From the NCBI GenBank assembly GCA_951406725.2, contig OX597825.1, forward strand, positions 76,756,001-76,820,000: a DNA stretch of 64,000 nt, read 5' to 3'. Under the pieces are notes generated by a model, which worked only from the letters and a program-made list of their open reading frames with translations, made no database searches and was not told the DNA's origin. Within the stretch, counting starts at the first letter, position 1; every line of letters starts with the position of its first letter. The DNA comes from Octopus vulgaris (lineage: Eukaryota). Shown here one piece after another: positions 4,531 through 39,250 of the stretch. The position numbers and the translations under genes were made by a program.

Positions 4531-5466
4531 TAACCCCATAGCCGTTCCTCTATGTGTATGAATAACAGACGGGATGGTCGTGGCTGGATCGGATCTGTTT
4601 GAGGTTACAGAATTGCCACTTCAGCGACAACAGCATCGGCAACAACAAAAGTAATGCGTTAAATAGTGCGGTCCTCGGTACATTGCGTCTGAATAAAAGA
4701 CGGAAAGGTCATGGCGAGATTGACTTTGATTATAGGTCCGCTCAATTCGAACTGACCTGGAGCTAAATAGCAGCGACAACAACTAAATATGCTTTGAATA
4801 AAGAGACCTTAGATACACTATGAGTCGACATAAGAGAGGATGGTCACGGCGGGAAAACTTTTGATCATAGATCTGCAGTATCGCATTTGACATACAAGCC
4901 CCAGTGCCACCATCACTGCGAGTGGTACCTTCCTCCTCCTCCTCCTCCTCCTCCTCCTCCTCTCCTCCTCCCTCCTCCTCCTCCTCCTCCTCCTCCTCCT
5001 CTCCTCCTCCTCCTCTCCTCCTCCTCGTAATCATCAGTAGCAGCAGCAGTAGCAGTATTGCTACTACCACTACCACTGCTACCATTACAATCATCACCTA
5101 CCACACACAATCATAACTACCAATGTCGCCGCCACCGCTGCCGCAACCACCAATACTACTATACTCTGGAACCACAGAGTCAACTTGGGATGCTGTCCGT
5201 CGACGCTGGGTGTGCTAGAAGCAGCAAGCAAATCTGTTACAAGTCTCCCTCAAATCATGTGTTGTTTTTGAAATACACATTTGTGACATATTAGATAAGA
5301 AAAACAAGAACAAAAAAAAAACACACGCAAATGAAAATAGAACAAAACATGGAAGACGCCATAAAATGTATTGAATATCCTTGATCATTGTTCTGCTTGA
5401 TCAGGACTGACCTGGGGTTAAACATTAGTAATACAAACAAGAACAATAGAACATATTTCTCTCTCT

Positions 5467-5525
<59 letters not shown>

Positions 5526-5572
5526 TAAATAAATAAATGGAGTTGAGCGAAGATGTTAATAAAATTCCTTTA

Positions 5573-5654
5573 CTTTCGACATATGTTTCGAAGACAACAT
5601 GGTTTTATTCCAAAGGAATAAACGGTGTAAGATGCAATCTTCTCATCAGGAAAG
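5573..5654 (-). ncRNA. Minimal type-I hammerhead ribozyme, complete core, 43-nt loop II insert
   Basis: Minus strand: CUUUC-CUGAUGA-GAAGA-[43 nt]-UCUUC-GAAAC-AUAU-GUC^GAAAG. Stem I 5/5 bp, stem II 5/5 bp, palindromic short stem III (ACAUAUGU). Predicted cleavage between 5578 and 5577. Confidence 0.85.
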
Positions 5655-5720
5655 AAAGGGAGCCTCTCTCAACAACAAGACATCTTACACCGTTTATTCC
5701 TTTGGAATAAAACCATGTTG
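5595..5720. repeat. Perfect 40-bp inverted repeat with 46-bp spacer
   Basis: 5595-5634 caacatggttttattccaaaggaataaacggtgtaagatg is the exact reverse complement of 5681-5720. Confidence 0.95.
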
Positions 5721-5753
5721 ATGGTAAACATAGGATAATTCATTCATCCATCG

Positions 5754-5787
<34 letters not shown>

Positions 5788-5866
5788 ATAGTAATGGTAA
5801 GATAACAAAAGAATGAATGAAATCTCGATATTATGTAAATAGAGGAATTTATCTGTGATTGCCTAG

Positions 5867-5925
5867 ATAACAGACGAGATGCCGGACCAGTTTTCCTCCC
5901 CGACATCCGAAACTCGGAGTCTTAT
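5867..5925 (+). ncRNA. Hammerhead ribozyme motif, core mutated (CAGACGA)
   Basis: AUAA-CAGACGA-GAUGCCGG-[14 nt]-CCGACAUC-C-GAAACU-CGG-AGUC^UUAU. Stem I 4/4, stem II 7/8, stem III 3 bp; the U4A substitution probably inactivates it. Confidence 0.7.
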
Positions 5926-5998
5926 TATGGCAACCGAATAATTGTCACATATATTATATTATGTTATATTACATTACATTATATTATATTATATTTGT

Positions 5999-37339: not shown

Positions 37340-39250
37340 AAGAATTATAAAAGCCCTAAGAATGTACGGTGACACATACTGAATGTAGGTATTTTGTGTA
37401 TGCTCTTATATATGTATCAAGTAGAAGCTGAAAATGCTCTGAGAATAGTTGAAATATTTCTATTTAAAGATTTAACCGGTTTCACAGTTTGCACTGATTT
37501 TCAAAAGTTGAGATAGAAAGACGTGAGTTATGCCGCAGCTGTCTGACTTTTGATTAGTGTTTGAAACATGTCCTATTTTCATGGCTCAAATTAATATATG
37601 TTTTGGATAGGATTTGGTTGGTAAAGGATAGTTAGATGTTTTGTTGGTTCCCCGTTGTGTCCGAGTGTTAATGTCAAGAAACAATACTTGGCCTCGTAAG
37701 TTAAGCCTGACATGGTTGCGTGGACATGTCAAGTGACAATACTAAACAATCAATGCTCTGAATGTTTTCTGTCAAGTATTGTGGAGAATGAACACGTAAT
37801 TAAGGTTAAAACCTTCTGTACGCTTCCCGCTATGTCCGTGCATTAGTGTCACGTGACAGTATATTTTGCACAAAAAACTAAGGCCAGCACGGTCGAGTGA
37901 ACATGTTTAGTTACAGTCAAAGGACGCTAAATTTAATCTGTTAGGTGGGAGAGTGGGCAAGAGTCGTTTGTCCGTATTCAGTGGTTAAAACTTAGGTTGT
38001 TAGCTGTGTAGATTCCTCATGTGAAGGTGTCAGAATGAATTTTGTGTGTGAATAGTTATTTGTGTATGTACTCTGTTAGTTTGTTAAACCTTGGCTTGTT
38101 CAATATTTTTGTATGAATGTATTTTTCTTTGTTTATCAGTGCTTCATTCATGGTATTTACTGAACAATGGCAGAGTTGGAAGACCTGGCAGTTGAGGGAT
38201 TGTCCTGATTTGAATTAGTATGTTGTGTCCTCAATAAGGTTGATGCAAGTCCTGCAAATCAAGCGGTCGCACTTTTTGACTGTTGGTGTTGGAATTTTGG
38301 AAGGTAGTTTAGCGCTTGTGAGGAATTTTTTTTGAAGAATTTGATTGTCTTTTACTTTTGATCATTTTGTGTGTTTCGAATGCTTTTTCATTCTTTGGTC
38401 TCGTCTTAGTAATGGAATTTTCTGGTCGATAATGTTGTGAACCTCTGTGCTTCTTGGGTTGTGTGTTGTAATAAAGGGTGGAGTACTGGTTGTATCGGGA
38501 GCATTTTTCGTTTTTCGTAGTTGTTGAATATCTATTGCTTTGACACGATCCATTCCGTTGTCTATCAACATTAATGGATATTGTCTTTTAAGTAGTATTT
38601 GCTTTAATTCCTGGAAACTTTTATTGCGAGTTTCAGAGTTTGAGACAATTGTGCAGATTCTTCTTGCTAGATTAATTGGAATATTATTCTTCGTGTGTTT
38701 GAGATGGCATGAGGAGAACAGTAAGAATCATTTTTATGTTTTGATTATTAGCATATCCAGGAATAGCAGTTGAGATTTACAGTATTGCATGGTGAAGTTG
38801 GAACAGTTTATGCTGTTGATTAGGCTTTTGAAATTCATAACTCATTCAAATGTGCGCGTCTACAGAATCAGGGAGTCATCTAAGTAACACTTCCAGTTTT
38901 CTAGTAAATATTTATGGAAGTCCAAACCATATTTTAATTTAGATTGTTCCTATATCTGAACCTTCATGTATGTTATGACTAGATTGGCGTAAGTCGGGGC
39001 AACTTTTGCCACCATCGCACTCCCAGATATTTTTTTGTAAATATTGCCATCGAAGTCAAGAAGTTGTTTTCGAGGATGAATTTTAATCCTTCAACAATGA
39101 AACATTTCTCAGCTATCTGGAATTTCATGAGGAAAATTCTCAAGCCAGAAATCTATTGCCTCTAGTCGATATTGGTGTGGGATTTTGGTATGAAGTTTTA
39201 CCATATCAAAAGATACAATGTGGTGTCTTTGTTTATGGTTTATGTTATCT
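37340..39250 (-). mobile_element. 5'-truncated, decayed Penelope-like retroelement (RT plus endonuclease remnants)
   Basis: Minus-strand motifs in the expected order: VSFDMVKLHTKIPH (~39216), FILENN, AMVAKVAPTYANL (~39020), WKCYLDD (YLDD at 38875-38886), LFLD, SSCHLKHTKNNIPINLARRICTI, PFITTHNP, KKCDRLICRTC. Several frameshifts and stops. Confidence 0.92.
37471..37507 (-). ncRNA. Decayed U3-A8 variant hammerhead motif at the PLE 3' terminus
   Basis: Minus strand: UU-UUGAAAA-UCAGU-GCAA-ACUGU-GAAAC-CG-GUU^AA. 4-bp stem II and palindromic ACCGGU stem III; the 10.1/11.1 pair is lost. Confidence 0.55.

Follow-up and report, generated by a model that had tools for sequence, protein, structure and literature searches.

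A perfect antisense copy of hammerhead loop II in Octopus vulgaris, probably a by-product of Penelope-like element insertion

A hammerhead motif on the minus strand of Octopus vulgaris contig OX597825.1 lies beside a perfect antisense copy of its own loop II, which raises the question of whether this antisense arm controls the ribozyme or is a scar of the insertion that carries it. The window, meaning the whole stretch of DNA analyzed here, is 64,000 nucleotides long (positions 76,756,001 to 76,820,000). A reading made from the letters of the sequence, the sequence-only reading below, had offered two explanations: a conformational off-switch, or the footprint of a 5′ inversion or template switch at a Penelope-like element (PLE) junction. 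We find that the arm is best regarded as an ordinary insertion scar and that a ribozyme switch is very unlikely. The layout itself is known from PMC3846280 and PMC8557442, as far as the portions of those papers used here describe it, and what is new is the instance of it in this family.

The hammerhead and its antisense arm

Positions 5720-5681 of the minus strand are the exact reverse complement of 5634-5595 (40/40), the pairs flanking the match are mismatched (5594/5721 and 5635/5680), and a spacer of 46 nt (5635-5680) separates the two arms. This confirms the exact antisense match noted before, and a perfect 40-nt inverted repeat is far beyond what chance would be expected to produce. The hammerhead parts also sit at the positions given earlier (Table 1). 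The 104-nt hammerhead fold alone has a z of -1.75, and an Rfam scan of the window returned no matches at the gathering score. The so-called loop II is predicted to be no open loop but an extended stem II with an 8-bp hairpin. Pairs in this region are retained in 110-115 of 115 same-register copies, a count made on copies picked by the core pattern, with 39 of 154 distinct copies excluded for indels. Common variants in these pairs are one-sided changes that keep the pairing (e.g., U-A to U-G), and no two-sided compensatory change is common among the 115 copies.

Table 1. Features of the insertion and hammerhead in window positions; element numbering takes the C of CUGAUGA as +1.
Feature	Position	Strand	Remark
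(TA)n tract, half of likely target site	5756..5785		A few bases at its start also fit the long end of the element
Inverted long arm, last 47 nt of tail, element +242 to +288	5713..5759	+	Mapped on natural copies
8-nt word common to tail (+242 to +249) and loop II (+48 to +55)	5713..5720	+	
40-nt antisense arm, element +16 to +55 inverted	5681..5720	+	32 nt uniquely loop II plus the 8-nt shared word
2-nt overlap, inverted piece and direct arm	5681..5682		Relative to natural reference copies
Direct short arm, 5′-truncated pLTR end, element about -32 to +127	5523..5682	-	
(TA)n tract, other half of likely target site	5470..5522		
Type I hammerhead motif	5573..5654	-	2-bp palindromic stem III; long structured stem/loop II; core and stems present
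Hammerhead stem I	5654-5650 with 5577-5573	-	
Hammerhead CUGAUGA	5649-5643	-	
Hammerhead stem II	5642-5638 with 5594-5590	-	
Loop II region (43 nt)	5595..5637	-	Predicted stem II extension and 8-bp hairpin
Hammerhead GAAA	5589-5586	-	
Hammerhead stem III	5586-5579	-	
Hammerhead GUC	5580-5578	-	
Predicted hammerhead cut	after C5578	-	

Read along the minus strand, the locus consists of a (TA)n tract, an inverted tail end, an inverted loop II piece, a direct truncated arm with the ribozyme, and a second (TA)n tract. The inverted tail piece has 98% identity to the tail of the natural copy L005 (1 mismatch in 46), and the direct short arm has 98.7% identity to the nearest copies compared, with one private change at 5547. 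The two inverted pieces overlap by 8 nt, and in L005 no longer word than this is common to the tail and the upstream part. Of the 70 arms that contain both copies of the 8-nt word, 11 have them identical, and the tail copy falls on the 5′ side of a predicted hairpin stem that immediately precedes the long end. The match of the antisense arm does stop at stem II, as had been pointed out, but the precision of this boundary needs no design. The inverted tail piece has an equal claim to eight of the 40 nt (5720-5713), and since the 8-nt word ends one base before stem II, the edge of the word explains the boundary. We conclude that the locus is probably a 240-base, 5′-truncated head-to-head PLE insertion between (TA)n tracts, with the antisense arm a likely by-product of reverse transcriptase slippage at the 8-nt word. 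The stub at the locus, which has no ORF, is predicted to be inert.

The element family and its head-to-head insertions

This hammerhead forms the end of a Penelope-like element that is present in high copy number and carries Hydra-clade motifs. A 19-nt core pattern has 1332 exact matches in the 2.8-Gb assembly, against none for the reversed control, and the exact 40-mer occurs 66 times. We compared about 250 loci, many of them overlapping, from well over 1300 copies; they were picked by hammerhead, tail or ORF queries, and patterns from the hammerhead region chose the samples, which are therefore not a random draw of all copies. Long copies have the pLTR and tail downstream of the ORF, 10 of the 30 loci retrieved by the 5′ part of the ORF have them upstream of it, and in tandem copies the tail continues to the ORF ATG at +328 to +336. 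A retrozyme or SINE was rejected because the ORF of long copies is directly upstream. No host gene was found around the locus, the frames of at least 120 aa in the window being mostly simple repeats. Fragments of two other high-copy repeats, with very high contig depth, flank the insertion at 5380-5425 and 5800-5950. Elsewhere in the window, a 121-aa frame on the minus strand (38362-38727) may resemble the thumb region of another Penelope-like element.

The element has a single ORF, seen as a 693-aa frame in L123 and others. Clusters similar to its protein carry RVT_1 and GIY-YIG, while the Pfam search itself gave GIY-YIG at 16.3 bits on L014, under the 22.6 cut-off, and no reverse transcriptase match in the three proteins searched. 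Hydra-clade motifs are present in the ORF starts, with SDKT (DKT for DKG) and IRW(L), RWK being only partly kept, and by eye the endonuclease lacks CCHH and has CxxC and CxH towards its end. A CxCX5C linker motif is lacking, with an N-rich stretch at its place in all long frames examined, and we therefore term the family Hydra-like and do not file it as a Hydra-clade member; judged by its motifs, it would be a Hydra-like Penelope-like element. The long asparagine-rich stretch of the L123-L126 ORF lies between reverse transcriptase and endonuclease, where the Hydra linker motif is expected, and it resembles N-rich inserts reported for Adineta Penelope elements. In a tandem cluster at G000:C20, 23.33-23.35 Mb (L240, L243, L247, L248, L250, L251), the core is altered to CUGGUGA, and on visual inspection the ORF start departs from that of other copies by many A-to-G changes, which could be fossil RNA editing.

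Head-to-head arms are the norm for this family. On contig C1, 95 core matches form 81 clusters (one of which, L136, is two insertions merged): 50 are head-to-head, none is tail-to-tail and 31 have a single orientation. A long end (~+288) is paired with a short end (~+130) in 40 of the 50 head-to-head clusters, the other 10 have one end elsewhere, and pairs of two long or two short ends are absent from all 50. Five C1 clusters copy one junction; once these are collapsed, 46 of 77 are head-to-head and 36 of those 46 are long plus short. Thirty of the 50 head-to-head clusters (26/46 collapsed) contain a complete hammerhead opposed by 20 nt or more of its own antisense sequence. Among 63 insertions with the exact 40-mer, a count in which L021 is misfiled as single, 31 are head-to-head, 27 long plus short and 1 tail-to-tail. 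The family has two fixed outer ends, about +130 and +288, and an inverted tail piece of 70 nt or less, as at the locus, is found in 14 of 58 distinct long-plus-short insertions. These same insertions have (TA)4 on both flanks in 47 of 58 cases and on at least one flank in 56 of 58; both flanks of the locus are (TA)n, which leaves the length of a target-site duplication unreadable there. The inverted, 5′-truncated copy with the tail at one end only, a feature of endonuclease-positive PLEs, is found here too.

Three further observations concern these ends and junctions. The stretches +127 to +133 and +283 to +300 hold a few bases matching (TA)n in L236 and other tandem copies. The long end lies ~47 nt upstream of the ORF start, immediately ahead of a pyrimidine-rich stretch ending in CAG, which could be a splice acceptor. 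Locus groups with the same junction (L106-L110 on C1 and L207-L209 on C24) probably arose via segmental duplication.

Origin of the antisense arm

The second explanation in the sequence-only reading, a footprint of 5′ inversion or template switching at a PLE junction, agrees with what was found: the flanking 47 nt are an inverted tail, head-to-head arms are usual in the family, and the pieces meet at an 8-nt microhomology. To ask where the arms come from, subfamily-diagnostic sites were taken as those with alleles at 20% or more. The two arms of one insertion differ at 15 of 544 comparisons of such sites (2.8%; 33 insertions) and at 4.4% of other sites, and random arm pairs differ at 45.6% of the diagnostic sites. 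This low difference within insertions indicates that both arms come from one source and were alike at the start, and 15/544 rejects two different templates as a rule, with insertion L154 (4/22 sites) as an exception. A looser test, which took alleles in at least 8 arms and classed 103 of 268 differences as "shared", was set aside since its threshold admits recurrent mutation. The zero mismatches in the arm had been taken to mean a recent event. The copy is indeed young, with 1 private change in 159 nt, but perfect pairing is simply the starting state of arms from one source. At the 1-in-159 rate, by arithmetic, zero changes in 80 nt would be expected with a chance of about 0.6, and of 32 other head-to-head copies in which both arms cover these 40 nt, 4 have kept the stretch identical.

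We propose that both cut ends of the (TA)n target would prime reverse transcription, one at +288 and the other at about +130. The cDNA that starts from +288 would stall after 47 nt, inside the predicted tail hairpin, and re-anneal 194 nt upstream at the same 8-nt word, where it would copy 32 more nt before being joined to the other arm via the 2-nt overlap. The head-to-head layout has already been published (PMC3846280 and PMC8557442, in the parts drawn on here), and the proposal agrees with the two start sites and the extension on both strands, the hammerhead being unneeded, that are described in vitro in the available part of PMC11167929. Start sites observed in that study did not differ between strands, a result that alone would not predict the strict long-plus-short pairing. 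Self-priming on an antisense template is what PMC3846280 proposes instead, in the portion consulted. A small literature search, which is no proof of absence, found no paper with a jump from tail to loop II.

Each exact junction pattern has one match in the genome, the locus itself. When two mismatches were allowed, one further locus appeared, L253 (G000:C4:77741797 region), which belongs to another subfamily on another contig and has its tail cut at the same +242 with a jump to loop II. The L253 jump has 4 exact shared bases and leaves perfect 32-bp arms separated by a single base. The direct arm of L253 begins at about +14 without CUGAUGA, and so without the catalytic core, and both arms of this locus carry a loop variant absent from all other copies compared. 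L253 is a second, independent junction at the same word. The search of other copies suggested by the sequence-only reading therefore finds the exact junctions only here, but the arm is not strictly unique given the similar, coreless L253, which counts against a pure one-off. The recurrence of an antisense arm at a site without a ribozyme is consistent with a slip-prone word and not with a regulator.

Other three-piece insertions either repeat a stretch (L069, L070) or skip one (L122, L045). About 90-100 nt of one arm are copied twice at L069:1840-2030 and L070:1810-1990, and since a deletion cannot make a doubly copied stretch, template jumps do occur in the family. Among 34 resolved junctions, 14 overlap by 0 nt or more, with a mean of 2.7 nt vs 0.78 in 400 random joins, and 20 have no overlap (extra or diverged bases). 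The scoring was noisy, to the point of mis-scoring the locus's own 8-nt junction, and uncertain or unanchored junctions were set aside, so together with the 20/34 the case for microhomology as a general junction rule in the family is weak. It is possible, and we put it forward tentatively, that the locus and L253 preserve a defined integration route in fossil form: the two cut strands of a (TA)n target would prime on one RNA at fixed sites ~160 nt apart, always a long one with a short one, and the long cDNA would stall in a tail hairpin and jump at the 8-nt repeat. If this is true, the young two-arm insertions of the family, which number in the hundreds, would serve as an in vivo map of how Penelope transposition completes its joining step.

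The same junction could have formed after insertion, if an inverted arm originally running unbroken from +288 to +16 had since been shortened by a 194-nt deletion between the two 8-nt words, which would still make the antisense arm a by-product. Palindromes are prone to such deletions. This is just the junction that loss of sequence between direct repeats would leave, and continuous inverted arms of such length are common in the family, though the tail word lies ~110 nt outside the would-be palindromic part. Microhomology-mediated deletions in Penelope copies are reported in the part of PMC3846280 used here; against this, the re-copied stretches in L069 and L070 show that jumps happen in this family, and the locus copy is young. 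The private loop variant of the L253 arms could point to copying after insertion but is equally explained by one source RNA. An insertion-time jump and a later deletion yield the same sequence at the locus and cannot be told apart there, and on the points above we consider the later deletion the less likely of the two.

An assembly or sequencing fold-back artefact is highly improbable. Palindromes beside microsatellites are hard to assemble, according to the part of PMC8557442 seen, and no read or contig was seen across either junction, the contigs of public runs ending inside the repeat. However, the pieces begin at the two fixed ends of the family and join at microhomologies that the family encodes, and the same junction is found independently in another subfamily on another contig (L253). 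In two public runs (X2, X5), a single contig per run leaves out window positions 5319-5859, including the insertion; it connects 5318 with about 5860, so that ~300 bases beyond the insertion are missing as well, and has ~90% identity to the left flank. This contig was rejected as an empty site, as its gap is too wide and its sequence too diverged.

Predicted folding and comparison with known systems

In predictions that leave out the antisense arm, stems I and II have probabilities of 0.86-0.99, and 1.6 kcal/mol separates the hammerhead fold from the minimum. When the arm is included, the predicted probability is 1.0 for the 40-bp duplex and 0.0 for stems I and II, and the hammerhead fold is 43.5-46.5 kcal/mol higher. 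The earlier structural prediction, that pairing of the arm would trap CUGAUGA and the 5′ arms of stems I and II in a 46-nt loop, thus holds in the folding model. If transcribed through, the 40-bp hairpin would be predicted to leave the ribozyme permanently inactive, and in this model the duplex is a one-way lock and no switch. Stem III, with 2 bp and palindromic, has a predicted probability of 0.01-0.02 in the monomer, and hammerheads with such a stem III are reported to need a dimer in the sections of PMC4209133 and PMC6765202 used here.

A functional conformational off-switch, or a hairpin selected as an ADAR substrate or for small RNA, is hardly credible: the duplex is predicted with full probability, removing the two stems, and the same junction arose twice, but the exact junctions number one each in the genome vs 1332 cores, the second event (L253) has no core, the gap of 43-46 kcal/mol is one-way, the arm would be transcribed first, and a lone motif with a 2-bp stem III is probably inactive as a monomer already (PMC4209133, in part). 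The off-switch of the sequence-only reading is not supported by these points, and neither mark of a cis-antisense switch, an arm kept across copies or two folds of similar energy, was found. Such a switch, if true, would be a rare natural case of cis-antisense control of a ribozyme, and the evidence points away from it. The idea of an ADAR substrate would extend to many copies of the element family. What the locus can offer is a clean example of head-to-head cDNA joining by Penelope-like elements and a caution for scans, in which perfect antisense next to a PLE hammerhead should be read as the default insertion product.

The following comparisons apply to the portions of the cited papers that were available. 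The motif resembles the minimal metazoan PLE hammerheads of PMC4209133 and PMC6765202 in being type I, with CUGAUGA and GAAA and a 2-bp palindromic stem III. It differs from them in its 43-nt structured extension of stem/loop II and in that its core adjoins stem II directly, with no additional base. The 5′-truncated inverted copy beside a direct pLTR is like the inverted-pLTR units of Pen2a_Av from Adineta vaga (PMC3846280) and those in figure 2 of PMC8557442. Shared with Pen2a_Av-type units (PMC3846280) are also the one-ended tail, palindromes or microhomology at junctions, internal microhomology deletions and an N-rich stretch in the ORF. The octopus tail, however, is ~160 nt (+130 to +288) vs their 30-40 nt, its target is (TA)n, so that the target-site duplication is unreadable, and loop II contributes a third piece to the octopus copy.

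The Hydra clade (PMC8557442) is matched in the single ORF, a unit of less than 3 kb, DKT, RW(L) at the place of RWK, GLYRDD, a C-terminal endonuclease with CxxC and CxH, the pLTR hammerhead and the (TA)n target. Unlike that clade, the octopus family has the N-rich stretch instead of the CxCX5C linker. The core word and ORF motif of the octopus family had no matches in the PMC8557442 supplement, where the hammerhead of Hydra-1_Obim has an 8-nt loop 2 and another sequence, making it a different family. Poseidon of Anolis carolinensis (PAc), studied in vitro in PMC11167929, is similar in that two start sites define the tail, the target is AT-rich, both strands are cut and extended, and the pLTR hammerhead is unneeded for insertion, as shown for PAc. 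Its start sites lie 111-118 nt inside the ORF without target homology, whereas both octopus ends are upstream of the ORF, each with a few bases matching (TA)n. The long and short ends, the single source and the recurrent jump site of the octopus family lead to testable predictions for that in vitro system.
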